Origin: a virus
Taxonomy: Duplodnaviria > Caudoviricetes
DNA length: 64,000 nucleotides
Virus record (IMG/VR): IMGVR_UViG_3300035520_001286
Location: 4,532 to 68,531 of that record
Direction: 5' to 3' (one strand)
A program made the translations under genes and the position numbers. The notes beneath the pieces are model-generated. The model made no database searches, was not told the origin of the DNA, and was given only the letters and a program-made list of their open reading frames with translations. Positions within the stretch are counted from its first letter, which is position 1. Every line of letters starts with the position of its first letter. Of this stretch, positions 20,019-57,717 are shown piece after piece.

Positions 20019-20106
20019 GTCATGATATTAACTCTATGACACGAAAATAACTTTTTAATATAAATTTTAATAAACTAACAAAGTGTCTTAGAATTAAAAT
20101 CATGTA
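20019..20106. promoter_or_regulatory. paired inverted 23-bp box, copy A
   Basis: GTCATGATATTAACTCTATGACA - 42 bp - TGTCTTAGAATTAAAAT. Confidence 0.75.
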
Positions 20107-20600
20107 TCTTTTATGAATACACCTCTAATTGATCTTCTGAGTTCACCTGTATCAATCATTGGCCTGTCACTTCCTTTGCCTTTAACATAAAATGGTTTAC
20201 CGGTTTTTTTATTTGCCATCCATCCACCATGTATCGTAATAGGAGAATTGGGTGCCCAACCATTGTCTTCTGTAAAATATGCTTTTGTCCAAGTTTCCAT
20301 TTTAAATGCTAATCTTTGCATTATAGTGTCCGCTTGCTGTTCTTCACCTTTAAAAATGTAATAACATGCCAACATAAGATCTTTATCTATTTGCTCTTTA
20401 TGTTTTTCTCTTACTGGTTCTAACAAAGGTCTTGGAGGTAAATTATTTACTTCTGAGCCAGCTTCGAGTATTGCTAATATTTCAGCATTACTCAAACTTC
20501 CATCTGTTCTTTTATTTGTTTCACTTGGAATTCCATACTTTACTACACCATTGTATTTTATATTAAATTTTTTCTTTTCGTGTATTATATCAATATTCAT
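20100..20600 (-). CDS. tail completion / virion morphogenesis protein
   Basis: AEILAILEAGS...PPRPLL...NSPITI...KG...PMIDTGELRRSI. Confidence 0.75.
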   Translation of the reverse strand: MNIDIIHEKKKFNIKYNGVVKYGIPSETNKRTDGSLSNAEILAILEAGSEVNNLPPRPLLEPVREKHKEQIDKDLMLACYYIFKGEEQQADTIMQRLAFKMETWTKAYFTEDNGWAPNSPITIHGGWMANKKTGKPFYVKGKGSDRPMIDTGELRRSIRGVFIKDT

Positions 20601-21034
20601 GTTGTAATTATAAAACCAACATATCCACGTGCTAACGATAACGCAACTAATTGTCTACCATACCCAGTAGTGTTCCAAAATTTATACGCAGGGTTATCTT
20701 CCATAAATTTATCTACTTCATATGAATAACTTATGTCCCCAACTGAACGACTTGACATTACACCACCTGCAGTTGAATCTGCGCCTATAGACTGAACGAA
20801 TTCTGGATCAGTTATGCAAATATAATGTGCAACAGCCAAACTCATCGCATATTTCCACTCATATCCCCAATAAGCATAATTAATCCTATCTTTACATAAT
20901 GAAACGAGCTCTTTAAAACTTTCTAAATTATCTTTATTCGTAACCCAAGGTTTCAATTTAGGACAAAAAACACAAAAGGAGGAGATCGTATATTTTGGAG
21001 GATCTTGCTGGGCAGGTAAACCTATAATCGACAT
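20597..21034 (-). CDS. head-tail adaptor (DUF4054-like)
   Basis: WGYEWKYAMSLAVAHY, SRSVGDISYSY, WNTTGYGRQL. Confidence 0.75.
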   Translation of the reverse strand: MSIIGLPAQQDPPKYTISSFCVFCPKLKPWVTNKDNLESFKELVSLCKDRINYAYWGYEWKYAMSLAVAHYICITDPEFVQSIGADSTAGGVMSSRSVGDISYSYEVDKFMEDNPAYKFWNTTGYGRQLVALSLARGYVGFIITT

Positions 21035-21306
21035 TAAAGCACCCTTCTAATTTTTCCTGTTTTAATTAGATTTTTAATATTCTCGTCAGACACATCTTCT
21101 TTCGTAAGCACAGTTGTTTCACCTGGTCTAAATTTATAAATGTTTGAATTATTCATCCAATCACCATAAACTTTTGTAACTTTACCATCTGCATTTTTAT
21201 TTGATTTAAAGGACATGGTCTTTACAACGTCTAAAATCATATCAGAAGTGTAAGAACCAGCAGAATATTGGATTGCTGTCGTATTAGTTGTTGAAACTGT
21301 AGGCAT
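21034..21306 (-). CDS. small head-associated hypothetical protein
   Basis: ORF between capsid and adaptor. Confidence 0.6.
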   Translation of the reverse strand: MPTVSTTNTTAIQYSAGSYTSDMILDVVKTMSFKSNKNADGKVTKVYGDWMNNSNIYKFRPGETTVLTKEDVSDENIKNLIKTGKIRRVL

Positions 21307-21475
21307 AAGAATTTTTCTCCTATTTTTATTTTGCTTAATAAATTAAATAACTGAATGACATAATATAATATCTACAATTGCAGAACTTTTACTAATACTA
21401 TGCATTCAGTTATTACCCTCATAACTATTAAACAACAATATTTATCTAATATTTAAATGTATTATTTAAACTATA

Positions 21476-22615
21476 TTAGTCGGAAGTAGGTTTCGCGAAA
21501 TCCCAATAAGAAACCGCACCAACCTCAGTTTGTTTCTCATTATAAGGGAACTGTAATGCGGATACTTGGCCAACGAAGAAAGTTGTATAACATAACTTAT
21601 CAATATTAGGTGCAGTATAGTACATTTGAACAGGATACGTAATATCCAAACGTACATATTTCTTATCATATTTATATGTTACAATTCTGCCTGCTTCATT
21701 TGTTCCCATAGATTCAAGACGAGCACGGCCTCTAAACTTAGGAAGATATCCATCTAAACCAGCTGCTTTCATTTCGTCAATACCAATGTTATTTACCATA
21801 AGAAACTGTCTAAGTGTATTAGTAAATAAATCACTATAACGACCTGTAAGCTCTGCAGCATCGGTCTGAGGCATAAGGAATACATCAGGTAAAAGATCAA
21901 GATTATTATTGCTATTGATTAAATAATAACTCATTATACCATTAATTGTAGCAACAATTTCCTCATCTTTCATAGACTTGAATCCTTTCTGAGTTGCATC
22001 CTGCGTGCCTTGAGGAAGAATAGTCGTATGAATCTTAGGAGAAGTAAATAAGCCATCATTTCCATTTGCACCAAAATAACTAATCTTGTCGCAGAATAAA
22101 TCCCAACCTGCAAGAATTGCATCTTTATAAATTGCCTCAAGAGACTTCGTAAATTGCAACTTATTGAGTTTATCAATTTCGACAAACTTAATATCATAAG
22201 CAATTTCAAAATTATATACAGGCACAGCCTCATGATTAAGTTTAGCATTTACACGAGGAACAACGTTTACATTATTTCCAGTTAAATTCTGGCTTTCCGT
22301 AGGCATGCCAGCCCATTCAACCGAGAAATAATCAACGAAATCAACCATTCCACCACCGACTTCAATCGGAATATCTTGCGCATAAGTTGTATTATACAAA
22401 GGCTCATAAGTTAAATTATGTAATTTGCTAAGCTTCGACATAACAAATGCAAAGTTAGCATCGTGCATTCTCTTCGTTTTCTGATCTTTATAAAGTCTAT
22501 TATAAAACTGAGGAGCCATATCATGCAAAGTAATACCAGTCTTGCATTCAGATGCCATACTAGCAATACTCTGCTTACTATCTCTTAACGATACTTCTTG
22601 AAAAAACTTTCCCAT
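21476..22615 (-). CDS. major capsid protein (DUF2184 / HK97 fold)
   Basis: LSKL...YEPLY...QDIP, FEIAYDIKFVEI, YFG..G.DGLF, PDVFLMP, CYTTFFVGQVSALQFPY; follows decoration and protease genes. Confidence 0.85.
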   Translation of the reverse strand: MGKFFQEVSLRDSKQSIASMASECKTGITLHDMAPQFYNRLYKDQKTKRMHDANFAFVMSKLSKLHNLTYEPLYNTTYAQDIPIEVGGGMVDFVDYFSVEWAGMPTESQNLTGNNVNVVPRVNAKLNHEAVPVYNFEIAYDIKFVEIDKLNKLQFTKSLEAIYKDAILAGWDLFCDKISYFGANGNDGLFTSPKIHTTILPQGTQDATQKGFKSMKDEEIVATINGIMSYYLINSNNNLDLLPDVFLMPQTDAAELTGRYSDLFTNTLRQFLMVNNIGIDEMKAAGLDGYLPKFRGRARLESMGTNEAGRIVTYKYDKKYVRLDITYPVQMYYTAPNIDKLCYTTFFVGQVSALQFPYNEKQTEVGAVSYWDFAKPTSD

Positions 22616-22631
22616 TATTGTTCATTCCTCC

Positions 22632-23126
22632 TTATTTAACATAAACAACAGTTAAGTTGCCTTCTGTTATTCCACTAAATTTCCATCCTTCAATCTTAAA
22701 TCCGCTCGTAGAACCAGTTACACTTGTACAGAACGAACGTTGAGAAGGAAGATAATAAACATCATCACCTTCAGAAGGAGAAACACCATATAATGAAACT
22801 GCAACTTCACCATATATCACGCAAGAACCAGCTTCACCAGAAGTAAACTTTACTTCATCTTCAGACTGAGGGAACAAGACATCTGTTTTTACGTTAGTCG
22901 ATAAAGCAATACCAGCAACCTTTCCAGAATATTCACTCGAAAGTCCAGTAAAAGAAGGAGTTGTATAAACCTGAGTTGTATCAGTTCTAATTAATAAATC
23001 GCCAGGAAGTACTCCATTTGTTGCTTTTTCGCTTACTCTAAACGGCTTAGTTTTTATCTGATTTATATTTGTTTCTCTACCAAGCATTAATCTTTGAAAT
23101 CCATCAATACCAACAATCTTAGCCAT
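22632..23126 (-). CDS. head decoration/cement protein
   Basis: VAGIALSTNVK...G.V..SLYG..P..GD.VY; position before the MCP. Confidence 0.7.
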   Translation of the reverse strand: MAKIVGIDGFQRLMLGRETNINQIKTKPFRVSEKATNGVLPGDLLIRTDTTQVYTTPSFTGLSSEYSGKVAGIALSTNVKTDVLFPQSEDEVKFTSGEAGSCVIYGEVAVSLYGVSPSEGDDVYYLPSQRSFCTSVTGSTSGFKIEGWKFSGITEGNLTVVYVK

Positions 23127-24283
23127 TATCTGCCTCCTTTAATTGCATTCTTATATCTATTCTTAAACGAATTTTCTATTTCTTTTCTTTTATTATTTGT
23201 AGAACTTGTGTCCTTTGTCTTTACAAACTTAGAATATGTTCTTGAGGAATCCTTATATCTAGAAGATTTTCTATCAGAAGTTTTTACTGGAGTTTCAACG
23301 ATATCATCTGCATCTAACAACTCATCGTCATCATCTTCTACTACATCTTCATCGTCATCTTCGACAACCTCATCGTCATCATCTTCAACGACTTCGTCAT
23401 CATCTTTAGTAATCTCAGATTCGACCTCATCGTCATCTTCGACAACTTCTTCATCATCATCTTCAACGACTTCGTCATCATCACCAATGGTCTGATTTCC
23501 ACCAAGCATCGATAAAACTTTATCAAGTTTTGTGCTAAGCTCTGTAGCCCAAACGGGAGCTACATCATCATCTCCTACTGTTTCGTTTTTGACTTCATCT
23601 TCGTCGTCTTTAACTTCTTCAACCTCAATTTCTCCTACTTCGTCATCATCATAAATCATACGTTTAATCTTAGGCAAAGTATTCTTTCTTCTTAACACTG
23701 TTTGATATCCTCCTAAATTTTTATTTATTTTATTACAACTATCTCTAATTGTTGCAATTCCTGCTCTTCCACTATCTACAAGTGCTAAATGATTTCCCCT
23801 TATATGCGTTTGGATATATCTTCCATTATTATCTTTTTCAATATTACAATTATATCCTAACGAAAGCTCTCTTTTTTCCCCAGATTTTATTAGTTCTATT
23901 ACTTCTGGGTCAGTTACAACTATATCGCAAATTAAACAATTCGATAAATCTCCTTGACCTCTTCTGATATCACGAATAAATCCACAAGAAAGTTCTTTAT
24001 AATTATCACAATCTACATCATCATCTGGATGATCATTACAAAATGGCTTATTCTCAAAAGATGCGATTGCAATAGGACTAAAAACTTCATCATCAGTTCT
24101 ATATACATCTACTACTTTATTTGGATCACCATCTTCTTCAATTTCACTTTCTAAATATTGATATTTGCCAGTTCTCGCAATAATAACATCACGACAAATT
24201 AATTGGCCATTATTATCACTCCATATATGATCAGTTATTTTGCTCCCATATGTAACTCTAGAGCTATCCACTAATCTTTTCAT
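23126..24283 (-). CDS. prohead protease/scaffold (DUF2213)
   Basis: DVIIARTG..QY, ASFENKPFCNDHP, ELSLGYNC, NHLALVDSGRAG; acidic scaffold-like C-terminus. Confidence 0.85.
   Translation of the reverse strand: MKRLVDSSRVTYGSKITDHIWSDNNGQLICRDVIIARTGKYQYLESEIEEDGDPNKVVDVYRTDDEVFSPIAIASFENKPFCNDHPDDDVDCDNYKELSCGFIRDIRRGQGDLSNCLICDIVVTDPEVIELIKSGEKRELSLGYNCNIEKDNNGRYIQTHIRGNHLALVDSGRAGIATIRDSCNKINKNLGGYQTVLRRKNTLPKIKRMIYDDDEVGEIEVEEVKDDEDEVKNETVGDDDVAPVWATELSTKLDKVLSMLGGNQTIGDDDEVVEDDDEEVVEDDDEVESEITKDDDEVVEDDDDEVVEDDDEDVVEDDDDELLDADDIVETPVKTSDRKSSRYKDSSRTYSKFVKTKDTSSTNNKRKEIENSFKNRYKNAIKGGR
23320..23490 (-). repeat. acidic coding repeat (D3-4EVVE)n in the scaffold region
   Basis: Tandem DDDEVVE/DDDEEVVE units; boundaries approximate. 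Confidence 0.8.
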
Positions 24284-24762
24284 TTACCTGCTGCCTCTTT
24301 TATTCTAGCAATTTGTGCTTCATATCCATCTTTTAACATTTGATTAACTACAACTTTTAATTTTTCATAATAATTATCTATCGCTTTTTTTGCTTTATCA
24401 TAATCTTCATCACTATCATACCAAAAATTAAAATCCATGGAATTTGCATCTCTCCACGTCCAAAGATATTCAGCTGTTTTTTTCACATCAGCGCTACGAT
24501 CATTTATTTTTTTAGAATCATTAAATCTTATTCCTTCTTTAATCCAATAATCTACTCCTTTCTTAGCTTCTTCAAGTGATTTATAAGATTCACCAAAACC
24601 ATCAATCATAAATACACCAGGAGCAACTTCTTCAATTATTGCATGTCTATATTTATATTCTTTAGCATCCCTTTGTTTTACAACTTTATTTATTGCTTCA
24701 CAAGAATCATTTGCCCTTACAATATAAGATCTACCATTAAATTTTACTTTAATTTTTTTCAT
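24280..24762 (-). CDS. head-region modular protein, putative internal virion protein
   Basis: N-terminal KVKFNGRSYIVRANDSCEA module shared with 24841..25716 and 28379..31168. Confidence 0.6.
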   Translation of the reverse strand: MKKIKVKFNGRSYIVRANDSCEAINKVVKQRDAKEYKYRHAIIEEVAPGVFMIDGFGESYKSLEEAKKGVDYWIKEGIRFNDSKKINDRSADVKKTAEYLWTWRDANSMDFNFWYDSDEDYDKAKKAIDNYYEKLKVVVNQMLKDGYEAQIARIKEAAGK

Positions 24763-24840
24763 TATTTTACCTATATATTATTATATACTATTTTAATTAA
24801 AATATGAAAATTATTTCATACAATCATCTAAACAATAAAA

Positions 24841-25716
24841 TCAATTTACAATTTCATAGCCTTTTGATTTTAATTCATTAAACTTATCAAATGAAGTATT
24901 GTTATGAGGATCTTGCATATGTATGCTTTTACGCAATTCTTTTTCATTAACTTTAAATTTTTTCATAATATATGGAATTAATTTCTCGTATACTTGAGAA
25001 ATAGATATAAATGGACTATCCTTAAATAAAAAACCAACTAAACGTTTTTCACCATTAACTGTAAATTCTATTGTTGTGTTTAAATATCCAGTACTAAGAT
25101 ATTTAGTACTTACCCAAGATACTTCTGGATCACTTATATAATTTGATGGTTTTTTTATCTTATTTTTATATTTTTGTATAAATTCTTGTGCTTCTTTTTG
25201 TGAAGAAAATCTTGCTACATTTTTATTATTATACATATCTGCATCTGAAGTCCAAGGAACAAAATTTAATGATTTTTCCATTACCATTGAATTAATCCCA
25301 GAGTGCTGACCATATGCTATAACAAAAAAGTTTTCATCTATAATCCTTCTATCACGATATTTTTTTACTTTTGCGAATGCATCGCTTATCAATTTTGCAC
25401 CACGATATTTTCTCATCAATTCCCTTTCAGCTTCTTTAAAACTATCAAGATCATAAATACCTTGGCCCCAATCACCACGATTTGTATCATAACCTAATGC
25501 AATAACATAAGAGCCATTGGGTTTTCTTAATATCGCATGCTTCCTGCTTCCATCAGAATACAAACCTTCAACATCCCAACCTTGAGAAGATTTACTAGAA
25601 TAATCTGCATCTTCCATACCAACATACTTTTTTGCCTTATATGCAGCTTCATCTTCATCATTCGCCTTAATAATAAATTTTCTGTCGTTAATGTTAACTT
25701 TAAATACTCTATCCAT
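24841..25716 (-). CDS. head-region modular protein, putative internal virion protein
   Basis: FKVNINDRKFIIKANDEDEA module; KYRDRRIIDEN shared with the 929-aa protein. Confidence 0.6.
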   Translation of the reverse strand: MDRVFKVNINDRKFIIKANDEDEAAYKAKKYVGMEDADYSSKSSQGWDVEGLYSDGSRKHAILRKPNGSYVIALGYDTNRGDWGQGIYDLDSFKEAERELMRKYRGAKLISDAFAKVKKYRDRRIIDENFFVIAYGQHSGINSMVMEKSLNFVPWTSDADMYNNKNVARFSSQKEAQEFIQKYKNKIKKPSNYISDPEVSWVSTKYLSTGYLNTTIEFTVNGEKRLVGFLFKDSPFISISQVYEKLIPYIMKKFKVNEKELRKSIHMQDPHNNTSFDKFNELKSKGYEIVN

Positions 25717-25786
25717 TTTTTTTACCTAAAAAATTTATTTTATATTCTAAATAACTAATATATAAGTTATTTAAATGCTCCTTAAC

Positions 25787-25875
25787 GTCACCAGTTTAAC
25801 TCTAAGACATATTATAATTTATATTATATAAATACTATACAAACTGTTATTTTGTCTTAGAAGTCTTTCTAAGTT
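25787..25875. promoter_or_regulatory. paired inverted 23-bp box, copy B
   Basis: GTCACCAGTTTAACTCTAAGACA - 43 bp - TGTCTTAGAAG. Confidence 0.75.
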
Positions 25876-27430
25876 TATCAAAAAACTTTTTATTTTTCTT
25901 TAGCACTTGTTCTTGAACTTCGTTATAATCATTGTTTTTGATTTGTTCAATTAATTCATTATCATCTTCACTTAAAGTTTCATCTTCATCTGGATTCTCT
26001 TCTTCATTTTTATCCATATCCTTTGCCAACTTATCATCTTCTGCACTAATCATTGTACCAAATCCTGTTTTCTTTGACATTGCCTTTATTTCTTCCAATG
26101 CAGTCTCATGTGTCATCAATCCCATGTCCATCAACTTAGAACAATTATCGACACACGAATTCAACATTTCTTGCTTTTTCTCATCTGTTACATCAACAAT
26201 ACTTTCAAACTCAAAATCCAAATTACTTGGAATAGGAATACCTTCAACAGCGAAAATTACTTTCAACAACTTTGTAATTGGATTTCTTAAATCACTTTCT
26301 TGTTTTCCCTTTATTGTGTCAGCATAAAATAACATTTCGGCTGGACTGTCAGAAGTTAATCCACCTTTTGTGTCACCATATAAAAGAACTTTAGGCATTT
26401 CTGCCGCACCAGCAATGAAATCTTCTTGAGTTTCCAATAATTCAGATAATCCACCTAATGAATATTCATGGCTTTCATATTGATCGTTCGCATCCATTAA
26501 AACTAAATTATTTATAGAACGATAATTATTTAACGCAGCTAATTGACCAGATAATTGAGCTTGACTATTGGAGTTTCCCATTGAAAGTCCAGAAAACATT
26601 CCACGCATACCATTAACTTTTACTATTTCAAGTAACGCTTTATTAACTAATGATGCTGACGCATTCTTCGTATTTTCGTGGCCTAACAAATCTTGGTATA
26701 TATGTTCTAACTCACTAATTCCCCAGCCACTTAAACGATCTTCAATATACCTTGGAGATCTTCTATTTACAAATCTTAAAACCCTTGAATGATGAACCTT
26801 TGTTACATTCTGATTATCAATATAAAAATTATAATATTTTGGAGTATTATAATCTATATTATTAAAATTATTTACTTTCTCACTTGAAGCTTCTAAATTA
26901 TACCATCTATCAGTTGAATATAATCTTAATGCGCTTCCTTTTTTTATATTTTTTACTTTTAGTGGCTGACTCAAATCTTCACATCCATCATCGACCATCA
27001 TCAATGAAGCTGAACCACCATACAATCTTGCCAACCCTTCTGCATATATTAATTCATGCTTTACTCTGTTATATCTAGTATAAACTTTAGATAATGTATC
27101 GCCATCAACATCACATGTTATGACTATCCCTTTCGATAGCATGTCCCTTGCGCCTTGATCAATAATACGCCTAAATATCCAACAACTATGATAAACTGAA
27201 GTAATCAAATTACGATTCAATGTTATCATATCGAGTGAAAACTCACCAGCATTTAATGCAACATCTTCAGCACCTGTCTTCATCATTGGATTTCCAAACA
27301 TTCCATCGTTTATATGAACAGTCGACTGATTTATCCCATTAATTATTTTACTAGTAAGTTTTTCACTCGAATCATTGATATTTAATTTATTTGAACTTGT
27401 AATGTTTACAGTAATTTTAGGATCAACCAT
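25847..27430 (-). CDS. portal protein (DUF1073-type)
   Basis: Y..CWIFRRIID..A.DM..KG, ARLYGGS, VHHSRVLRF, GWG.SEL, AGAAEMPKVLLYG...GGL. Confidence 0.85.
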   Translation of the reverse strand: MVDPKITVNITSSNKLNINDSSEKLTSKIINGINQSTVHINDGMFGNPMMKTGAEDVALNAGEFSLDMITLNRNLITSVYHSCWIFRRIIDQGARDMLSKGIVITCDVDGDTLSKVYTRYNRVKHELIYAEGLARLYGGSASLMMVDDGCEDLSQPLKVKNIKKGSALRLYSTDRWYNLEASSEKVNNFNNIDYNTPKYYNFYIDNQNVTKVHHSRVLRFVNRRSPRYIEDRLSGWGISELEHIYQDLLGHENTKNASASLVNKALLEIVKVNGMRGMFSGLSMGNSNSQAQLSGQLAALNNYRSINNLVLMDANDQYESHEYSLGGLSELLETQEDFIAGAAEMPKVLLYGDTKGGLTSDSPAEMLFYADTIKGKQESDLRNPITKLLKVIFAVEGIPIPSNLDFEFESIVDVTDEKKQEMLNSCVDNCSKLMDMGLMTHETALEEIKAMSKKTGFGTMISAEDDKLAKDMDKNEEENPDEDETLSEDDNELIEQIKNNDYNEVQEQVLKKNKKFFDKLRKTSKTK

Positions 27431-27449
27431 TTATTTTTATATGTTCTCA

Positions 27450-33172: not shown

Positions 33173-33261
33173 TACTCCAGTTAAACTCAGAGACATTTTA
33201 TAATTCTTATAATATAAATTAACACCAAATTGATGATATGCCCCTATAGTATATTACAAAG
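33173..33261. promoter_or_regulatory. paired inverted box, copy C (right box degenerate)
   Basis: TACTCCAGTTAAACTCAGAGACA - 43 bp - TGCCCCTATAGT. Confidence 0.6.
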
Positions 33262-36584: not shown

Positions 36585-36673
36585 TACCTCATTTAAACTC
36601 AGAGACAAACGAAATACATTATTAATAAATATATTACTTTATAACGAAATGTCTCCATGATAAATCCAGTGAC
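36585..36673. promoter_or_regulatory. paired inverted box, copy D
   Basis: TACCTCATTTAAACTCAGAGACA - 42 bp - TGTCTCCATGATAAATCCAGTGAC. Confidence 0.7.
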
Positions 36674-36867: not shown

Positions 36868-36924
36868 CTTTCATTTTAACCCCTTTTAATTATTTATTAT
36901 TATTATACTTGTAAACAATACAGT

Positions 36925-38199: not shown

Positions 38200-38413
38200 A
38201 ATTAACCTTAACTTTAATTTTACTTTAACTTATAATTTGATTAACTTATATATTATATATACTAATATAATATTAATCTATATATTATATATAATATTAA
38301 TCTAGATCTAGATATATATATTAATATATATTATATATTAGATTATATATTAATAATATTATATATAGATCTAATTATATAGTAAAACCTAATAAAAACC
38401 TAACAAAACCTAA
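38200..38413. other. nearly G/C-free tract with palindrome and helically phased repeats; candidate origin or control region
   Basis: TCTAGATCTAGA palindrome, duplicated ATATAATATTAATCTA, AAAACCTAA x3 at 11- and 10-bp spacing. Confidence 0.4.
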
Positions 38414-38955: not shown

Positions 38956-39043
38956 ACTCAAATTTAAACTCTAAGACATAATAAATTTTGTAATATAAAT
39001 ATTTATAAAACTATTTTTTATGACACCAAGCTTAACTGGTGAC
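38956..39043. promoter_or_regulatory. paired inverted box, copy E
   Basis: ACTCAAATTTAAACTCTAAGACA - 42 bp - TGACACCAAGCTTAACTGGTGAC. Confidence 0.75.
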
Positions 39044-39708: not shown

Positions 39709-39797
39709 CTTTCTGGTTTAATTCTGGGACATTTTGCAATATAATTTAATTATTTATATTACTTATTGCTCTTGTGTCTCTGGTGCCATTTTAAAGG
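39709..39797. promoter_or_regulatory. paired inverted box, copy F
   Basis: CTTTCTGGTTTAATTCTGGGACA - 43 bp - TGTCTCTGG. Confidence 0.6.
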
Positions 39798-40407: not shown

Positions 40408-40463
40408 CTACCCTTTTTTGTTGTTTATTTATATTATACCTTATTTAGTATATTTTTAAAATT

Positions 40464-41213: not shown

Positions 41214-41292
41214 AAAAAATAATTATGAGGGTTGTAAAATATAAAAAATTATATTTACATTTATATTATACTTAAACATTTAAATTATATTC

Positions 41293-42912: not shown

Positions 42913-43434
42913 TTAATTATTCTCCTTAAATATCATAAATTTTTGTTTTATACTATTTAATCTACTATAAATAGTTTTTTCTGACCTATCAAGCATTTTT
43001 GCTATTTCAACTATTTTATACCTTTGTTGTTTTTTGTCTAATATGAATTTTTCCTCCTCTGTTAGTGTGTTAAAAAAATCTTTGTAATCTATATTAAACT
43101 CAACTAAATTTATTTCAGTTAATGTTTTATTTGTATATTGGCAATTATCATCATATTCTTCACTATTAATTTTTTCTATTTTATTACCTTTCCTTTTTGG
43201 TTTTATAACTGAGTTATAATTTATATACTGTAATATGCTATTTTTTATATAATTATAAGCATATGTACTAAATTTACCTTTATTTTTATTATATCTTAAT
43301 GCTGCTTTACATAAAGCTAAATATCCTTCTTGTAATATATCTTCATAATCATGAGTTATATGTAATTTATTTATTACGTAATTAACTAATTTGATATTAC
43401 TGTTTATTAAGTTTATTTGTTCTAAATTAAGCAT
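42913..43434 (-). CDS. sigma-70 family RNA polymerase sigma factor
   Basis: Region 2 NIKLVNYVI..EDILQEGYLALCKAALRYNKNKGKFSTYAY; region 4 EIAKMLDRSEKTIYSRL. Confidence 0.85.
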   Translation of the reverse strand: MLNLEQINLINSNIKLVNYVINKLHITHDYEDILQEGYLALCKAALRYNKNKGKFSTYAYNYIKNSILQYINYNSVIKPKRKGNKIEKINSEEYDDNCQYTNKTLTEINLVEFNIDYKDFFNTLTEEEKFILDKKQQRYKIVEIAKMLDRSEKTIYSRLNSIKQKFMIFKENN

Positions 43435-43786: not shown

Positions 43787-43875
43787 GTCCTTATTTTAAC
43801 TCTGTGACACAGAAGCCTTTAGTAAATAAAATATTTTAAAGGATTCTTTTTATGTCACAGAGTTAATCTGGTGAC
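43787..43875. promoter_or_regulatory. paired inverted box, copy G (best-conserved)
   Basis: GTCCTTATTTTAACTCTGTGACA - 43 bp - TGTCACAGAGTTAATCTGGTGAC; 14-bp perfect inverted match. Confidence 0.85.
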
Positions 43876-43882: not shown

Positions 43883-44431
43883 TTAATCATGGAGTCCACT
43901 ATAGATTTTTTGTTTAATTACTTTTAGCATTTTGCTTATATTGCACTGTGAATAATGGACCTCATTTGCTATTTCTTGTTGTGTATAACCTTTTTGAGCC
44001 AATTCAATAATTTGCATATATACTTTTGGTTCATTTGTTAGAATTTGCTCAATATAGATTTTAGATTCTATTGTGAGTAAATTGCAATCTTCTTCGCCAT
44101 AAACATTAAGCATGTCTAAGTCTTTATCATCATCATTTTGAATAGCAAAACCAATCTCTTTGCCTTTTCCATGAATGATTTTATATACATACTTAAGCAT
44201 ACTAAAATAAATTTGTCTTACTGCAAATGTGCAAAACTTAATATTTTTCGATTGATCATACTTTAAGCAAGATTTCCATAATGCTATATAACCTTCTTGC
44301 ATAATGTCATCTTTATTTTTGAGTACGTCATTTGATTTTGTAATTGAGGTATTAAATACATATGGAACTAATTTTATGTTCTTTTCATATAATTCATTTG
44401 CCTCAACCATTTTTGTTTGTTTGTTTTCCAT
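43883..44431 (-). CDS. sigma-70 family RNA polymerase sigma factor (second)
   Basis: NIKLVPYVF..DDIMQEGYIALWKSCLKYD..KFCTFA; region 4 GYTQQEIANEVHYSQCNISK. Confidence 0.85.
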   Translation of the reverse strand: MENKQTKMVEANELYEKNIKLVPYVFNTSITKSNDVLKNKDDIMQEGYIALWKSCLKYDQSKNIKFCTFAVRQIYFSMLKYVYKIIHGKGKEIGFAIQNDDDKDLDMLNVYGEEDCNLLTIESKIYIEQILTNEPKVYMQIIELAQKGYTQQEIANEVHYSQCNISKMLKVIKQKIYSGLHD

Positions 44432-44480: not shown

Positions 44481-44509
44481 ATTATAATACATTTTTACAA
44501 ACTTGTAAA
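44481..44509 (-). promoter_or_regulatory. sigmaA-type promoter with overlapping palindromic operator
   Basis: TTTACA-N17-TATAAT on the minus strand; near-palindrome TTTACAAACTTGTAAA (44494-44509) over the -35. Confidence 0.7.
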
Positions 44510-44533
44510 CTGTTTGAGGCAATTTTTTAAAAA

Positions 44534-47943: not shown

Positions 47944-48033
47944 TATCAGATTTTACTTCAGAGACACTTTATGCTTATTTGTTAATATTTTATTTACCTT
48001 TAGTGTGGTGTGTCACTGAAGTCATTCCATGTC
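47944..48033. promoter_or_regulatory. paired inverted box, copy H
   Basis: TATCAGATTTTACTTCAGAGACA - 44 bp - TGTCACTGAAGT. Confidence 0.7.
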
Positions 48034-48487: not shown

Positions 48488-48577
48488 ACTTAGATTTTAA
48501 TTCTGGAGCATTTTAGGGCATAACCTATATATTTTATTTACTTATATAAAGTTATGACTCCTGAGTTAAATTAGGCA
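48488..48577. promoter_or_regulatory. paired inverted box, copy I
   Basis: TTTTAATTCTGGAGCA (ends 48510) - 44 bp - TGACTCCTGAGTTAAA. Confidence 0.6.
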
Positions 48578-48949: not shown

Positions 48950-48978
48950 ATTATACCACGATTTTACAAATTTGTAAA
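48950..48978 (-). promoter_or_regulatory. strong sigmaA promoter with overlapping palindromic operator
   Basis: TTTACA-N17-TATAAT with extended TG; perfect palindrome TTTACAAATTTGTAAA at 48963-48978. Confidence 0.8.
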
Positions 48979-49033
48979 CCGTTTTTAAGCTATTTTTAAA
49001 AATTTTTTACTAATTTGTAAATATTTTTTTTAA

Positions 49034-49784: not shown

Positions 49785-50108
49785 TTATACAATATTCACA
49801 ATTTTCACTACAATTGTTTTCTGAATGAATCTTGTAGTATCAATTGAAGCAATGTTATTGCAAAACGTTTCTAATTCAAGTTTTGCTTCGCCTTCACCAT
49901 CAACATTTAATTTTTTAAACTTTGCTTGAGGAATTACATCAGTTTTTCCTTCACATTCAATTGCACATTTGCATTGCTCATTAATAAGCATTAATGTACT
50001 ACTATAATTTGCAATTTCATTAAATGGAAACTTAAAACGAATTACACTAATTCCGTCTTGCCGAGTACTTACTCCATTAAATGCTCCGACTGCTTTAATT
50101 TTTACCAT
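49785..50108 (-). CDS. hypothetical protein
   Basis: ORF track; GGAGG RBS. Confidence 0.65.
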   Translation of the reverse strand: MVKIKAVGAFNGVSTRQDGISVIRFKFPFNEIANYSSTLMLINEQCKCAIECEGKTDVIPQAKFKKLNVDGEGEAKLELETFCNNIASIDTTRFIQKTIVVKIVNIV

Positions 50109-50568: not shown

Positions 50569-50569
50569 C

Positions 50570-51091: not shown

Positions 51092-51909
51092 TTAATACCT
51101 TCTATTTTATAATACATAACTTCAATGTTTTTTGTTTTTTTACCATTACCTGGCTTGATTTTTGTCATTTCACGTAATTCAACATAAGGTAAATTAACAT
51201 TATTATCTAATATATCAGTATATAATATATCACAACCATTATTTAATAATTTTCTATAATTATTTTCTCCAATAGATTGTGTGCCATTATACCAAATATC
51301 AGTTTTTTCATATGGAGGATCTAAAAACATTAAACAATCTTTTGGTTTAACATTTTGTATATTTAATTTTTTAAAGAAATCTTTGTAATCTAAATTATAA
51401 ATTTCTATATTTTTAAAACTATTATGAATTTTATTATATTGTTCTTTTGTCAAAATTCTATCGTTTATTCTATTACCATAACTTGAATTAAATCCATTTA
51501 GACCACATCTAAACATAGAATTTATACAAGCATAAGAAATATAATATAAATAAAAACTTTCATAAAAAGTTCCGCTACCATAATATTTTTTATTCATATA
51601 ATTTCTAAAATTATAATAAGCATTTTTATCCTTTAATAACATTAATGAGCTACTATAATCATCAACAAATTTTTTATATTGCCAATAATCATAAATTTTA
51701 AACCCATTCAATATTTTAATTAAATCTTTATTTGCATCGTTTATGTAAACTTTATCAAACATATTGCCAAAATTTACTGAAATAGAAGCTGAGCCACAAA
51801 ATGGCTCAACTAATATTTTCTTTTTAGTTTTAGAAATATATTGTTCTACTATGGGTAAATATTTATATTTGCAGCCAACATACTTAATTATTCTTATATA
51901 ATTACTCAT
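51088..51909 (-). CDS. Dam-like (D12 class) N6-adenine DNA methyltransferase
   Basis: KYVGCK, VEPFCGSASI, FLDPPY. Confidence 0.85.
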   Translation of the reverse strand: MSNYIRIIKYVGCKYKYLPIVEQYISKTKKKILVEPFCGSASISVNFGNMFDKVYINDANKDLIKILNGFKIYDYWQYKKFVDDYSSSLMLLKDKNAYYNFRNYMNKKYYGSGTFYESFYLYYISYACINSMFRCGLNGFNSSYGNRINDRILTKEQYNKIHNSFKNIEIYNLDYKDFFKKLNIQNVKPKDCLMFLDPPYEKTDIWYNGTQSIGENNYRKLLNNGCDILYTDILDNNVNLPYVELREMTKIKPGNGKKTKNIEVMYYKIEGIK

Positions 51910-52648
51910 TGTTTTTACTTATTGCTTCACTTATTCTTTGTTTTGCAATATCATAATACTTCTTTTCTAATTCAAAACCTATGAATTTTCTTTTAGTATT
52001 AATACAAGCAACTCCAGTAGATCCACTGCCCATACAATTATCTAAAACTAAATCATTTTCATTTGTATAAGTTTTAATTAAATATTCTAATAATTCTACT
52101 GGTTTTTGTGTTGGATGCTTTCTGCCAATATTTGGATTAGAAAATTCTAATAAATTGTCTGGATAATGTAAACCATCAAGCGAACCATTAAATTTTATAT
52201 GCTTAATATTCCATTTACCTTGAGAATTTTTATATTCTGCTTTTCTTTGTGAAGCTCCCCATACTTTACCTTTATACATTTGAGGATTATATGTTGGTTT
52301 CTTTTTATAAAATATACTAATAGTTTCTATACGAAAATATGGTTGATATTTTAAATTTAAAAAATTACTACCTAATGATTTATGCCAATAATAATCATAC
52401 TTATACCATGAGGTATTGCTTAATCTTAAATGACAAGCAAATAATCTATCACCAAATAAAGCTATACAACCATTATCTTTTATTATTCTTTTATACTGCT
52501 CCCATAATTTATCAAAAGGAATAATTATATCCCATTTACATGCAGTAGTTCCATAAGGTAAATCACAGAGTATCATATCAATAGACTTATCTGGAATTTC
52601 TTTCATTAATTCTAAGCAATCGCCACATTTTATATAATTCGTTTTCAT
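51902..52648 (-). CDS. N4-C/N6-A DNA methyltransferase (beta class)
   Basis: DMILCDLPYG, HPTQKPVELL, VLDNCMGSGSTG, FIGFEL. Confidence 0.9.
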   Translation of the reverse strand: MKTNYIKCGDCLELMKEIPDKSIDMILCDLPYGTTACKWDIIIPFDKLWEQYKRIIKDNGCIALFGDRLFACHLRLSNTSWYKYDYYWHKSLGSNFLNLKYQPYFRIETISIFYKKKPTYNPQMYKGKVWGASQRKAEYKNSQGKWNIKHIKFNGSLDGLHYPDNLLEFSNPNIGRKHPTQKPVELLEYLIKTYTNENDLVLDNCMGSGSTGVACINTKRKFIGFELEKKYYDIAKQRISEAISKNNE

Positions 52649-53436
52649 TATTTTTGTTTTACAGTTGCAGTTGTCGCACCACTTCCAGTAAAACTTCCAA
52701 CCTTAATCTTTTCCCTTTTTATATTCCAACAAGCATCATGGTATGCACAACCTAATGATCTTTTACAACTTTCTTTATCACAACATCTCATAGGAAGCGT
52801 GCCTTCTTCTTCAAACTTCTTTCTCAAAGCTTTTACTTTAACCATTCGTTCTACATAAGGCCTTGCCTTTTCAGAATCATACTCATATGGAAATATTTTA
52901 ATGTTTTGATTATTTTTGTCCTCACATAATACAAAACCGTGAGGGATCCCAGACATGTGCATATATAATTGCAATTGTTTTTCACCATGGGGATGAGAAA
53001 TCATATTGTTAAATTGCATTGTATTTACTGATTTAATTTCAACTACATATAATTTTGTCCCGAGTTTAATAATAGCATCAGGCGTATACAATAATCCCCA
53101 TTCTTCTGATTCCCCTCTTTGTTCTACACCAACTGCAATGCCTGCTTGCATAAACATTTTTTGCCATTTCTCATGTACATACCAACCATTAAGAAAAATG
53201 CGTTTTAATCCAATTGGAATTTTTGGTTCGCTTCCTTTATAATAAAAACTAAGTATTGCTTGACGATAGCACCATTCAGAGTCAGATGCTACTAAACCAG
53301 AACCATGTAACATTACACGATCTTCCCTATTTTCATCATCTGTGTAAAATAAATTATTTAATTTTGTTTCTATTAGCAATGTATCAGTTTTTGGCAAATT
53401 TGTTTTTAATAAAGCATCCTTAAGTTCACTATCCAT
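52648..53436 (-). CDS. Cas4-like PD-(D/E)XK exonuclease with Fe-S ligands
   Basis: WCYRQ, TPDAII, VVEIKS, QLQLYM, C-terminal C..C...C.YHDAC. Confidence 0.8.
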   Translation of the reverse strand: MDSELKDALLKTNLPKTDTLLIETKLNNLFYTDDENREDRVMLHGSGLVASDSEWCYRQAILSFYYKGSEPKIPIGLKRIFLNGWYVHEKWQKMFMQAGIAVGVEQRGESEEWGLLYTPDAIIKLGTKLYVVEIKSVNTMQFNNMISHPHGEKQLQLYMHMSGIPHGFVLCEDKNNQNIKIFPYEYDSEKARPYVERMVKVKALRKKFEEEGTLPMRCCDKESCKRSLGCAYHDACWNIKREKIKVGSFTGSGATTATVKQK

Positions 53437-53483
53437 ATTTATATTCCTTTTTATTTTATTATACTTTTGGGATTTTATCTTTA

Positions 53484-54542
53484 TTACTCAAAATCTTCTT
53501 TTTGCTCACCAATAGTTTTTACTAAATCACTATCCCAATCGTCTTCATCATTGTTCTCTAATTCATCTTGAGCTTCCAGATTGTCACCAGAGTCATCAGA
53601 AGCATTTTGTTTATTATTTATTTTGGCTTCTTCTTTTTGTTTCTGGATCAATTCTTTTCTTATCTTATCAACATCATCATATGAGACAAATCCTCTATCA
53701 AAAAATATAGGAAGTTCACATTCACCTAAAGGATTACAAACTTTAGATTTAACTACTTTTACTTTTATAATAATTCCAACAATTAGCTCCTTTGCTGAAT
53801 TTGAAATATTATATTTATTTGGAATTTTAATATATTCTACTCTATTTACTTGCATTCTAATAGAACAATAATGTTTTAACGCTCTACCACCAGGGGTATG
53901 AGTTGTAGGACCAAACATCATTGCATTCATTTCATCTCTAAGCTGATTTATGAATATCCAAGTTGTTCCTTTATCTTCAGCCTTGTGAACTATTTTAGGA
54001 AGCTTAGAAGTTAATAATGCAGCAATTCTGCCCCTTTGCCCTTCTTTCTCAAAATCATTTTCTTCAAACTCTTTCCTTGTAATAAGTGAAGGTACAGAAT
54101 CAACAACAACCATATCACCACCAGCAATTGTAAACACATAACCTTCATGTAAAGCATCTTCACCAACTTCAGCTCTTGAAATAAATAATTGTCCAGGTTT
54201 ATTACCAAAAACTTTTGCGCGTTCTGAATCAAATGTACCTTCAATTGGAATATCCATTGCAGTTTCACATTGTGCCATTAAATGATATGCCAATGTTGTT
54301 TTACCAGCAGATTCAGGGCCAAATATTTCAATAATTCTACCTTTTGGTAATCCACCACCTAAAATATTGTCAAGATCTTCTATTCCTGTAGATATTCTTG
54401 GAATTTGTTTAATTTCAGATTTTGAACCTAAAGTATAAACAGTATCTTGCCCATATTTAGCATTTAATGAATCAATTGCTAATTGTATATTCTTTTCTTT
54501 TGTTGCTCTTTTGTCTGGTTTAAATTCTGTACTTTTAGCCAT
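53484..54542 (-). CDS. recA: RecA-family recombinase
   Basis: GGGLPKGRIIEIFGPESAGKTTL, VVVDSVPSL, FINQLRD, PGGRALKHY. Confidence 0.92.
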   Translation of the reverse strand: MAKSTEFKPDKRATKEKNIQLAIDSLNAKYGQDTVYTLGSKSEIKQIPRISTGIEDLDNILGGGLPKGRIIEIFGPESAGKTTLAYHLMAQCETAMDIPIEGTFDSERAKVFGNKPGQLFISRAEVGEDALHEGYVFTIAGGDMVVVDSVPSLITRKEFEENDFEKEGQRGRIAALLTSKLPKIVHKAEDKGTTWIFINQLRDEMNAMMFGPTTHTPGGRALKHYCSIRMQVNRVEYIKIPNKYNISNSAKELIVGIIIKVKVVKSKVCNPLGECELPIFFDRGFVSYDDVDKIRKELIQKQKEEAKINNKQNASDDSGDNLEAQDELENNDEDDWDSDLVKTIGEQKEDFE

Positions 54543-54550
54543 ATATTACC

Positions 54551-57301
54551 TCAAATAAAATTTTTATTTACTAAACTTCTATTATACAATAAATTTCTTC
54601 TATACCAAAGTTTGTCGTTAAATTCCAAACACCCTTGTTCTTTTAATATTGAAATTACTTTTGAAGTTATTGCTCTACTATTTCCACTTTCCTTTATTTT
54701 ATCTTCAAAATCAGGAAAATCAATGTATGGACTATTTTCAAAAATTATTTGAGCAGCTTTTTCTCCTATTCCTTTAATTGAACTTAACCCACATTGAATT
54801 ACTTTACCACCACCATATTCTACAATCTTAAAATTTGCAGGCCCATTTACATGAGGTAACATTATTACACAACCAGATTTAACAGCCTCTGACTTATATT
54901 TCTCTATTTTTAAATCATCATATGTAACTTTAAGTTTATTTTCCCAAAACTCTAATGGATAATTTAATTTGAAAAACATTTCTTCTATTGAAATTAATGA
55001 ATATCCAACGGCATGTCCTTTATTAAATGAATAGTTGAAAAAATTGTTATATAAATTTTCGGCTTCAACCAAATTTACTCCATTATTTTTTGCACCATTT
55101 AAAAATATCTTTTTATATTTTTCAAAATCTTGGACGAATTGTGAATGCGTTCCACCTTTTGCAGTTCCATTAGGATCCATTTTAATAATCTTGTCTGCCT
55201 GTCCCCAATCCATATTACCAATATTTACACATAATTGCATAATCTGTTCCTGATATATTACAGTTCCATAACTATCCTTTGTATATTGATAATAACATTC
55301 ATTTTTAGCATTATTTATATTTTGTTTATTTTGTGCATAAATTTTATGCATTTTTAAACTTAATGGCCCAGGTCTATTCATAGCGTTGGTAGCAACAATA
55401 TCACCAAAACTATCACAATCAATATCATTTAACATATTCTTTGCAGCTGATTTTTCAAACTGGAAAATTCCATCAGTATTACCATTTTTAAACGCTTTTA
55501 ATATGTTCTCATCTTCAGTCCATTGTTCATTTTTTCCAATTCCTTCTATGTGCGTTAATCTTCTCAATTGACCAAGTTCTTCCATCGTACTAAGACCAAG
55601 AATATCAAATTTAATAATATGAATTTTCTCTAAATCAGCCAAATCATATGAAGAATAAAGCTTTCCAGTTTTTTTATCTTCTTTAATTGCAGTATAATCT
55701 AATAAATCTCCACCTGTAATAGCAACCCCAGCAGCATGCGTTCCTATAAAACGTACTTTTTGATATAGCAATGTAAAATGTTTAATAATATTATTATATA
55801 AACCATTATATAACATATATTTTTTATCTTTTTTCAATCCGATTAAATCTAATTCATTTTCAGTAACATATTGATTTATATAAGATTTTATATTTGCAAT
55901 TTCAATTTTATTATTTTTTCTAATGTCCTCATCAACTTTCACATCAGTTGGCAAACCACAAACTTTCGTAAGATCATTTATTAGGTTATCGACTTTATAC
56001 AGCCCATAGCTACAAATTTGACATGCTTTACCTTTATACTTAGTTGTCAAATATTCCATAACCTCTTCACGTCTTGCTGTTTCGAAATCTATATCAATAT
56101 CAGGCATTTTCACTTTATCTTTTCTTAAAAAACGCCTAAAATCTAATCCAAATTTAATACTATCAACATCAGTAATTCCTAACGCATAATTAACTAAAGA
56201 ATTACAACCAGAACCTCTTCCAGGTCCAACAGTTATCCCATTTGATTTTGCCCAATTAACATAATCTTGAACCATTAGAAAATAATCTTCAAAATGCAAT
56301 GTTTTAATTACGTCTAATTCTTCTTTTGCTCTATTAATATATTCCTTTGTATATTTCCCTCTTTTCTTTAATCCATTTTTTACATATTCGACTAAATACT
56401 CAAATGAACTTTTTTCTTTACCTTCAGAAAAATCGGGAAGTGAAGTCGTTAATTGATCTAAGATATCATTATCAACCTTATCTTCAATTTCCTTCAAATT
56501 GTTGATCATCCATGTACCTAACCTCTCAATATTGGAAAAATCATTTTTATGCATTTTAATGAATCTTTGTTTCATTTCATTATCGCTTGGCATATATCTT
56601 TCAGAATATGTATTTCTAATCATATTAATATCATGCCCAGAAATTTCATGCATTTTCAAATAAGTATCAAAATCTTCTTTTTTTCCATAATGCGAATCAG
56701 AAGTCAGGATACATTTAATGTGTAATTTTTTTGCAAGTTTAATTGATTCAATATTAACTTTTTCTTGCATTCCAACTTCTGATACAGTATATGGCTGAAC
56801 TTCAATATAAAAATCATCACCAAATAATCCAACCATCTTAACTAAATATTTTTCTGCAATGTCAAGTCTATCATTTAAAATACTTTTGGCTAAAAAACTT
56901 GCAACACAAGCACTTGTACAAATTAGTCCTTCACGATAATTTTCTAATTCTTTAAATGTTACAATAGGCTTATAATATGTTTGAGTTGAAGCTATTGTGC
57001 ATATTTGATTTAAATTATGATAGCCTTGTTTATTTTTAGCAAATAAACACAAATGATAATATGGTTTATCATTATCTACTTTTGGTTTAAAATAAATTTC
57101 ACACCCCATAACTGGCTTTATTCCGGCTTCTTTACAAGCATAATAATGCTTAACTAAGCCATTCACGACACCATGTTCTGACATCCCTAATGCAGTATGT
57201 CCTAACTCTTTAGCTATTTGAACCAAACGTTCTTGATTATCTGAACCATCAAACGCAGACCACATACTATGTCTATGTAAATCCATATTTTTAATATCCA
57301 A
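54551..57301 (-). CDS. dnaE: DNA polymerase III alpha subunit (DnaE, PHP domain)
   Basis: DLHRHS, GPGRGSG, MPDIDIDF, HAAGV, KFDILGL, YSFNKGHA; TTG start. Confidence 0.93.
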   Translation of the reverse strand: MDIKNMDLHRHSMWSAFDGSDNQERLVQIAKELGHTALGMSEHGVVNGLVKHYYACKEAGIKPVMGCEIYFKPKVDNDKPYYHLCLFAKNKQGYHNLNQICTIASTQTYYKPIVTFKELENYREGLICTSACVASFLAKSILNDRLDIAEKYLVKMVGLFGDDFYIEVQPYTVSEVGMQEKVNIESIKLAKKLHIKCILTSDSHYGKKEDFDTYLKMHEISGHDINMIRNTYSERYMPSDNEMKQRFIKMHKNDFSNIERLGTWMINNLKEIEDKVDNDILDQLTTSLPDFSEGKEKSSFEYLVEYVKNGLKKRGKYTKEYINRAKEELDVIKTLHFEDYFLMVQDYVNWAKSNGITVGPGRGSGCNSLVNYALGITDVDSIKFGLDFRRFLRKDKVKMPDIDIDFETARREEVMEYLTTKYKGKACQICSYGLYKVDNLINDLTKVCGLPTDVKVDEDIRKNNKIEIANIKSYINQYVTENELDLIGLKKDKKYMLYNGLYNNIIKHFTLLYQKVRFIGTHAAGVAITGGDLLDYTAIKEDKKTGKLYSSYDLADLEKIHIIKFDILGLSTMEELGQLRRLTHIEGIGKNEQWTEDENILKAFKNGNTDGIFQFEKSAAKNMLNDIDCDSFGDIVATNAMNRPGPLSLKMHKIYAQNKQNINNAKNECYYQYTKDSYGTVIYQEQIMQLCVNIGNMDWGQADKIIKMDPNGTAKGGTHSQFVQDFEKYKKIFLNGAKNNGVNLVEAENLYNNFFNYSFNKGHAVGYSLISIEEMFFKLNYPLEFWENKLKVTYDDLKIEKYKSEAVKSGCVIMLPHVNGPANFKIVEYGGGKVIQCGLSSIKGIGEKAAQIIFENSPYIDFPDFEDKIKESGNSRAITSKVISILKEQGCLEFNDKLWYRRNLLYNRSLVNKNFI

Positions 57302-57442
57302 CCCTTTTTATTATACTAAAACTACATTTAATTATATAATACTATTTAACTAAATTTCATTTAAATAATTTTTCCATTCTTCCAGCTAAAAATATTCCAA
57401 CCATTTTATATTTATCTCCTATTTACTATTTTAATAACTATT

Positions 57443-57607
57443 TTAATTTATTTCTCCATCTATTCTACAATAATCATAATTTATAAACATGGTAATCAAT
57501 AAAATAGATTCTTCAAAATTTTTAATATCATCATTTTGTAATGAATTAATAGCACTTCGAAGTAAATCCATTATTGTTTCTTTATCAATTTCATCAAATT
57601 TATTCAT
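57443..57607 (-). CDS. 54-aa hypothetical protein (not in ORF track)
   Basis: MNKFDEIDKETIMDLLRSAINSLQNDDIKNFEESILLITMFINYDYCRIDGEIN; AAGG RBS. Confidence 0.55.
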   Translation of the reverse strand: MNKFDEIDKETIMDLLRSAINSLQNDDIKNFEESILLITMFINYDYCRIDGEIN

Positions 57608-57628
57608 AACCTTACAATATCATATAAT

Positions 57629-57717
57629 GTCATAAAATGAATTCTGTGACATTTTATTAGTGATATAAGTATTTATATATTTAATATAATTAAATGTCAC
57701 AGAATTAAAATTTTATA
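57629..57717. promoter_or_regulatory. paired inverted box, copy J
   Basis: GTCATAAAATGAATTCTGTGACA - 43 bp - TGTCACAGAATTAAAA; 12-bp perfect inverted match. Confidence 0.8.

Follow-up and report, generated by a model that had tools for sequence, protein, structure and literature searches.

A repeated element of two inverted arms and a conserved centre at the gene junctions of an uncultivated gut phage and of distant and unrelated phages

The phage genome and its gene-junction units

The DNA considered here is a window of 64,000 nucleotides, the whole stretch that was analysed, which corresponds to bases 4532-68531 of the 68,531-bp viral record IMGVR_UViG_3300035520_001286 (Duplodnaviria, Caudoviricetes). 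The uncultivated phage behind this record will be called G0 (G000 in our genome labels), and the subject of the analysis is an element of about 90 bp that recurs along its genome, made of two inverted arms held at a fixed 42-44 bp around a conserved AT-rich centre. G0 has a GC content of 28%, and its minus strand carries all credible open reading frames (ORFs). In the order of transcription these start with DNA-modification genes (carbamoyltransferase), a dUTPase gene, the PolIII alpha gene and then an AAA_5/VWA gene pair; two genes for ECF-like sigma factors, a tRNA cluster, SSB and a ligase come in the middle, and the end is made up of the genes for the terminase, a DUF3383 tail protein, MuF, portal, capsid and neck, after which come tail and other genes.

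Twelve units (A to L) are present in G0, all of them at gene junctions (Table 1). They fill 12 of the approximately 31 intergenic gaps of at least 40 bp and, in this one-strand genome, are placed exactly between the stop codon of one gene and the ribosome-binding site of the following one. A previous reading made from the sequence alone had listed ten copies. All ten were found again at their positions, with the spacers it had given and always at a gene junction, and units K and L bring the total to 12. That reading had also placed the right box over the end of the upstream coding sequence in seven of the ten, which our own ORF calls bear out (A, B, C, D, F, H and I). Its description of the boxes as an inverted pair holds as well, but two good arms exist in about six units only (A, G, H, J, K and L). 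In C, D, E, F and I, and partly in B, the centre is retained with one arm, and in all of these (6/6) the well-conserved arm is the one lying downstream in transcription (the left box of the earlier description). Across G0 the downstream arm is well conserved in all units and the upstream arm is good in about half; degraded upstream arms are found mainly where the arm runs into the 3' end of the preceding gene. Each strong arm has a partner, or the remnant of one, at a spacer of 42-45 bp. The arms of unit L are divergent from the consensus, yet complementary to each other. The distance between the boxes, previously put at about four helical turns, measures approximately 59 bp from centre to centre, or about 5.6 turns.

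The motif is clearly enriched over a shuffled AT-rich background. A 14-mer allowed up to three mismatches has 16 matches in the sequence against 7.7 +/- 2.9 in dinucleotide shuffles, none of which reached 16, and a 20-column arm matrix finds 17 matches in the G0 genome against 2.3 in shuffles. Arm matches exceed those in shuffles in every genome carrying the element (for example 14 against 1.75 in G1 and 15 against 1.85 in G2, two relatives described below).

Table 1. Units of G0 and its two sigma factor genes (window positions unless stated otherwise; z, RNA fold score)
Feature	Position	Strand	Spacer	Description
Unit A	20019..20106		42 bp	two-armed; between neck-like gene (20100-20600) and 178-aa gene; z = -3.0
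Unit L	21345..21416		~40 bp	not in the earlier list; just downstream of capsid-like gene; z = -6.1
Unit B	25787..25875		43 bp	downstream arm strong, upstream arm partial and within 3' end of portal gene
Unit C	33173..33261		43 bp	effectively one-armed (downstream arm and centre); upstream-arm position within 3' end of terminase gene; no hairpin, z = -0.96
Unit D	36585..36672		42 bp	effectively one-armed; first unit before small genes leading to terminase; z = -0.80
Unit E	38956..39043		42 bp	upstream arm weak; centre matches the relatives' central 15-mer at 13/15
Unit F	39709..39797		43 bp	strong arm downstream only; downstream of SSB-like gene
Unit G	43787..43875		43 bp	best two-armed copy; between both sigma genes; z = -8.2
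Unit H	47944..48033		44 bp	two-armed; upstream of AAA_5/VWA gene pair
Unit I	48488..48577		44-45 bp	divergent, TGC replaces TGTC
Unit J	57629..57717		43 bp	two-armed; between dUTPase and small ORF preceding PolIII alpha; z = -5.5
Unit K	genome 1018-1090, outside window		43 bp	not in the earlier list; perfect 16-bp inverted repeat
Sigma factor gene 1	43883..44431	-		182 aa; Sigma70_r2; host-type promoter in front
Sigma factor gene 2	42913..43434	-		173 aa; Sigma70_r2 and weak r4

Two details of the record may be added. The sequences downstream of A and B (20002-20018 and 25717-25846) are alike past the arm, with a GGAG ribosome-binding site and then a CATT(T)AAAT stretch; in unit B no start codon comes after this shared stretch and the next gene lies about 100 bp on, and the stretch may have been left behind by the duplication of a gene start. 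The record also ends in a 127-bp direct terminal repeat (G000:1-127 and 68405-68531), a length typical of the k-mer overlap that assemblers leave in a circular contig, which may make a physical terminal repeat doubtful.

Three-block anatomy and spread among gut phages

Relatives of G0 were not easily reached through its genes. Megablast against GenBank phages gave no match, scans of a viral collection with single proteins (sigma, portal) found no relatives, and a protein-based search reached portal relatives at 57% identity or less only. The 14 loci obtained from a scan with the portal alignment (33-55% identity) have no box and no comparable inverted repeat within +/-10 kb. A first paired pattern (AACTC/GAGTT) had only two chance matches in the viral collection, both in GC-rich coding DNA. 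A broader scan for the architecture (TTAAYTC-NNN-GACA, 42-44 bp, TGTC-NNN-GARTT) revealed true homologues, six contigs from gut metagenomes and seven from IMG/VR, which agree well past the bases specified, including the extensions GTCACCAG and CTGGTGAC.

Two of the homologous genomes are complete, G1 (G001, 59.3 kb) and G2 (G002, 56.4 kb), and these, along with G4 (G004) and G5 (G005), have a GC content of 43-45%. All that these relatives have in common with G0 is structural proteins (25-48% identity), the dUTPase and one weak match that is ligase-like (E about 1e-6). G1 and G2 carry eight units each, compared with 12 in G0. The spacer of paired units is 42-44 bp in G0, G1, G2, G4 and G5 despite the difference in base composition (28% vs 45% GC). 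G3 (G003) is a 129-kb genome of 26% GC with one paired unit and several single arms, and no structural gene is common to G3 and G0. The dUTPase is the sole protein that BLASTP and phmmer detect in G0, G1, G2 and G3 alike. Outside phages, the paired pattern has only unrelated matches, and no true copy, in 185,579 species genomes of a bacterial and archaeal collection, and not one of 401 sampled Clostridia genomes contains the exact arm. The element is common to distant and unrelated gut phages.

The GC-richer relatives display the anatomy of the unit most clearly: an arm of approximately 16-26 bp, 14 variable bp, an asymmetric 15-mer (TAAATATTCCTATTA), 14 variable bp and the inverted arm. The core of the arm is TGTC-NNN-GA(G/A)TT-AA, extending to about 26 bp. 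Each of the relatives' units joins a half ending in TAAATATT to a half ending in TAATAGGA, and the central 15-mer can be written TAAATATT-CC-TATTA. In G0 the centre is made of A and T only and is ATTTATATTA-like; with 13/15 positions of unit E in agreement, the AT-only centres of G0 are homologous to the 15-mer. The latter does not occur outside units in G1 or G2 and is never found without arms. Its orientation relative to gene direction is mixed, as seen with confidently oriented genes.

These blocks have diverged unequally. Over the eight orthologous unit pairs of G1 and G2, the central 15-mer differs by 2.5% and the arms of all units by 7.8% (3.1% in those of the six two-armed units), as opposed to 11.9% in the arm extensions, 12.9% in the variable linkers and 16.6% in the 150-bp flanks. 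Since divergence in the arms and the centre is low compared with linkers and flanks, these parts are functional and their spacing matters; arms and core are subject to purifying selection, and the linkers evolve freely. The nucleotide conservation of the element far exceeds that of any protein of these phages.

A proposed protein-read site and its rivals

The interpretation we favour, with a probability of roughly 0.4, is that the unit is a three-block DNA control cassette at operon junctions, read by a protein that the phage itself encodes. The element would be a composite double-stranded DNA site, with its arms 42-44 bp apart and the 15-mer exactly central between them (14+15+14). A phage-encoded DNA-binding protein, acting as one dimer or as two, would occupy the arms and clamp or bend the central element, and the clamped centre would switch or insulate transcription at operon junctions throughout the genome, which would result in a temporal regulon. 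In G0 the working part would be the centre together with the arm that faces the downstream gene. Through the 18.6-kb packaging and head region, units are the sole recurring intergenic signal, and that region has no sense-strand terminators and no strong canonical promoters. The idea of a phage-wide regulon put forward in the sequence-only reading survives in part: there is a genome-wide, sequence-specific family of sites whose inverted boxes, fixed spacing and conserved core resemble those of protein-recognition sites, but the phage sigma factor proposed as its reader does not fit, as discussed below. We infer that a protein binds the unit and affects transcription, and that this reader is a small, fast-evolving phage protein.

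Several results weigh against such a cassette. A search for a shared reader with BLASTP and phmmer, in which the G0 proteins were compared with every ORF of G1, G2 and G3, gave no candidate; a Pfam census of the non-structural ORFs of G1 lists no DNA-binding regulator, transposase, recombinase or ParB; and the small G0 proteins adjoining units have no DNA-binding domain. One G1 unit is followed by a canonical promoter 110 bp downstream, and another lies between two terminator-like hairpins at the end of an operon. The mixed polarity of the asymmetric centre relative to gene direction is awkward for a one-way promoter. Finally, two-armed units, if transcribed, would inevitably give RNA hairpins of 15-26 bp. 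As for other proteins that might act on the site, complete G1 and G2 encode no sigma factor, integrase or recognisable regulator, and HU/IHF (PF00216) is missing from G0-G2 and was found only in G3.

These hairpins could be the functional form of the element. The arms would then pair in the RNA at gene junctions into a hairpin that serves as a substrate of RNase III or lends stability to mRNA ends; polycistronic transcripts would be split as at the RNase III sites of T7, and the downstream arm would become a common 5' leader. We consider this unlikely. Placement between stop codon and next ribosome-binding site in a one-strand genome would suit it, as would the great stability of the two-armed units (RNA fold z lies between -5.5 and -8.2 for the G1 units as well as for G, J and L, with an unbroken stem of about 26 bp in G1). 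A stable helix is not present in every member of the family, however: C and D form no hairpin (z from -0.8 to -1.0) and E, F and I only a weak one (-2.2 to -2.5), and all five have the conserved arm and centre. The 15-mer occurs in both orientations to transcription, so that the RNA of the loop would vary between units, and strong sequence conservation between genomes of 28% and 45% GC is not needed by RNase III. A search of Rfam returned only tRNAs at gathering thresholds, and nothing at the unit loci at E <= 1.

The pairing of the arms itself argues in the same direction. No arm covariation beyond the consensus was found over 18 paired units. Complementarity of the arms is 0.72-0.85 within units and 0.77-0.78 between them (approximately 0.4 in the outer spacer in both cases), because the arms are two copies of one consensus; this is expected of protein sites, not of a selected helix. 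The halves of the centre agree less within a unit (0.32-0.42) than between units (0.55), unlike those of a hairpin loop or stem. Compensatory change is limited to one pair, an arm position at which orthologues show A-U, G.U and G-C states, the G.U being that of the sense strand; this is suggestive but a single case. On the sense strand of the G0 arms, G.U pairs outnumber A.C pairs (32 vs 17), but this excess is not significant, since composition predicts about 58%. When G0 is taken alone, duplex energy favours an arm's own partner (p = 0.0009), a signal that comes from 7-8 units and may reflect how the copies arose. Recognition of duplex DNA by its sequence thus appears to be the better-supported reading, to which the two-armed units may add some effect at the RNA level.

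Alternatively, the units could be hot spots or sites of module exchange, comparable to PeSLs, attC sites or miniature inverted-repeat transposable elements (MITEs), with their TG...CA ends facing the modules and inverted repeats thus enclosing each module; recombination ends around gene modules were also an alternative of the sequence-only reading. Some observations would agree with mobility. The element is present in the unrelated phage G3, and the orientation of its centre is mixed, as it would be after random insertion. A gene-sized indel of 421 bp abuts the outer edge of one unit exactly, another of 328 bp lies at a broken one-armed unit, and paralogous units of G1 have about 25 bp of flank in common on each side. 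Yet no tyrosine recombinase (PF00589) is matched in the five genomes G000-G004, and the census of G1 lists no transposase or recombinase. All eight units are orthologous and stable in G1, G2, G4 and G5 (for the last two, where their records cover the region), with no presence/absence polymorphism at a divergence of about 10%. Most of the breakpoints between G1 and G2 lie away from units (2-3 of approximately 12 are at units), an inserted gene is not flanked by a second unit, and no target-site duplication is visible. Constrained arms and centre next to free linkers also suggest a function kept in place. Recombination seems an unlikely account of the element.

The main idea of the sequence-only reading was a promoter class read by one of the two ECF-like phage sigma factors, with the boxes as operators. 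We now regard it as very unlikely. Both G0 and G3 encode sigma factors, unit G lies between the sigma genes, the host-type promoter in front of the first of them would fit a cascade, and the centre is -10-like, with GACA and then TATAAA 17 bp later in several units (on the plus strand in A, B and C and on the minus strand in J, exactly as had been described). However, Sigma70_r2 (PF04542) and phrog_351, present in G000 and G003, are both absent from complete G001 and G002, which carry the best-formed units; because of this, the location of one unit between two sigma genes is no special evidence. A marginal sigma-like match in G1 (E = 0.012) has no Pfam support. The GACA-17-TATAAA arrangement is antisense in A, B and C and fails in the relatives, and no ECF-type AAC...CGTC motif is found at the right spacing upstream of TGTC in the alignment of units. 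A phage sigma factor as general reader is therefore not supported.

Evidence for a promoter role as such is mixed. Units lie upstream of genes, their centre is -10-like and the retained arm of the one-armed units of G0 faces the downstream gene in 6/6 cases. Units do not present -35 and -10 elements at fixed spacing with one polarity, generic scans for sigma-70 promoters find no excess (109 vs 109.6 and 139 vs 131.9), and the canonical promoters of G0 and G1 (TTTACA/TTTACT, 17 bp, TATAAT) lie outside units. The centre is at most a candidate promoter core. A host regulator with a regulon of its own is an unlikely reader, because the exact arm is in 0/401 Clostridia and no true paired copy is in the 185,579 species genomes.

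Known repeat systems and other intergenic signals

To our knowledge, genome-wide repeated control sites are known in a few model phages only, namely the SPBRE sites of Bacillus phage SPbeta, the stoperators of mycobacteriophages and the PeSLs of T4-type phages, and these are the closest to the unit in concept. Stoperators belong to Cluster A mycobacteriophages (PMC9283540). Those of the L5 gp71 type are single asymmetric 13-bp sites bound by a lysogeny repressor. The units resemble stoperators in having many copies at gene junctions across the genome, and in G0 the conserved arm is constant in its orientation to transcription; stoperators differ in that they lack a paired inverted copy, a fixed spacer and a central element.

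SPBRE sites are bound throughout the SPbeta genome by the master repressor MrpR (PMC10516654). Both families consist of a conserved sequence at about ten intergenic or promoter sites of one Firmicute phage, and the SPBRE regulon is read by a phage protein. As in that system, the units are many intergenic copies of one selected sequence (2.5-8% divergence against 13-17%); no candidate for the cognate protein was obtained by BLAST, phmmer or Pfam. SPBRE is a single 15-bp motif of a temperate phage, whereas here two arms of approximately 16-26 bp and a 15-mer are joined by 14-bp linkers, and the phages lack an integrase.

PeSL cassettes of T4-type phages combine a consensus sigma-70 promoter with a short GC-rich terminator hairpin in variable arrangement (PMC2839356, PMC4122927). 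Like the units, they recur between genes along the phage genome. PeSLs are also associated with indels of gene size that distinguish closely related phages; of the approximately 12 breakpoints between G1 and G2, two or three coincide with units, and no inserted gene has a unit on both sides. The units have no consensus promoter or U-tract, and their arms stand 43 bp apart with strict spacing. Canonical promoters are found outside the units, not in them, and the AT-rich arms, 42-44 bp apart, received no call from a terminator scan, so neither the promoter nor the terminator stem-loop of a PeSL is there.

In anatomy, the closest systems have two inverted repeats around a central bending site. 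In REP/BIME elements with a central IHF site (RIP/RIB) and in the Correia elements of Neisseria, inverted repeats flank an AT-rich segment of binding or bending, in intergenic DNA; both are families of host chromosomes with hundreds of copies, their transcripts form hairpins, and those of Correia elements are cut by RNase III. The unit is not found in bacterial genomes, and G0-G2 have no HU/IHF gene, which sets it apart from host REP/BIME. RNase III sites of phage T7 and Bacillus phage SP82, which are defined by structure, are also alike, in that about ten related sites able to form hairpins lie between the genes of a phage transcribed in one direction; here, in contrast, sequence is conserved without covariation and half of the G0 units have no second arm.

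Integron attC sites are imperfect inverted repeats at cassette junctions in which structure is conserved over sequence. In the G0 arms, GTTTAAC and GTTAAAC agree with RYYYAAC and GTTRRRY and are separated by 5 nt from an inner box, and GTT/AAC triplets are present in most of them, but the relatives have AATTC/GAATT instead (GAATTAAAC). Since attC conserves structure and the unit sequence, the pattern is the opposite one, and the integrase family PF00589 has no match in G000-G004. The terminal inverted repeats expected of MITEs are present as the 16-26-bp arms; TG...CA is at the inner and not the outer ends, presence/absence polymorphism is not seen, and inspection reveals no direct repeats at unit edges. 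FRT, dif (TTCCTAT in common), the CodY and Spo0A boxes, T4 late TATAAATA and the ends of CRISPR repeats have a short chance likeness to the unit, the rest of each site being missing. A literature search with the arm sequence gave nothing relevant.

The unit thus fails to show the defining properties of PeSLs, attC sites, MITEs, host REP/BIME elements and structure-defined RNA, and it has those of a family of phage regulator sites, bar the protein. We tentatively suggest, as a possibility rather than a probability, that it represents a previously undescribed class of three-block cis-elements in unrelated gut phages of very different base composition, read by a fast-evolving phage protein that organises transcription or module exchange across the genome. 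If so, it would be a portable 'punctuation mark' of phages that carries its own reader. The element is anatomically distinct from SPBRE, stoperators and PeSLs and crosses lineages without common structural genes. It offers a handle on the regulator of a large group of gut phages that are uncultivated, and on its timing logic, as well as a sequence tag for recognising them in metagenomes. Were the units points of recombination, they would help to explain module shuffling in these phages.

The G0 gaps without a unit contain other signals, among them the tRNA cluster and three kinds of sequence. The first are promoters of host type, with 17 bp between TTTACA and TATAAT and in some cases a TG extension; their -35 region is enclosed by a perfect palindrome, TTTACAAATTTGTAAA. 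They are found at 48950-49021 and 44481-44533 of the window and at about 2160-2250 of the genome (outside the window), one of them directly before the first sigma gene, and are probably a class of early promoter plus operator. G3 has an analogous repeated motif, TTGTAAACCCTTTTTGTTAAA. Another recurring intergenic motif, AAGTATAATA(A/T)AAAT, is located at 62255-62316, 57302-57442, 53437-53483, 41260-41292, 40408-40440 and 36868-36924; it is promoter-like without a -35 element and resembles the unit centre in one direction. A 210-bp gene-free gap beside the ligase gene (38200-38409) consists of AT-only repeats that form a long palindrome centred on ATCTAGATCTAGAT; it is a candidate origin of replication.

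In G1, choline kinase-like, LicD and BCCT transporter genes (L110:14037-14936 and neighbours) together make up a set for phosphocholine decoration, an unusual one in a phage, and the genome further encodes ThyX, a dCMP deaminase and a nucleoside deoxyribosyltransferase. Just past the G1 unit at 10174, a conserved stretch of about 85 nt (L109:9590-9690; in G2, L114:15262-15345) ends in GAGTTCAATTCTCAGCAGGTCCACCA and resembles the T-arm and acceptor end of a tRNA, although ARAGORN makes no tRNA call there.

A separate family of small palindromic elements also came to light. It consists of TTAATTCGGGGACA, then 42-44 bp that are often themselves palindromic, then TGTCCCCGAATTAA, and it occurs in many unrelated bacterial phyla (genome contigs L131, L132, L137, L139, L140 and L141; metagenome contigs L034 and L040). 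Its skeleton and spacer length equal those of the phage unit, and it matches no family known to us.

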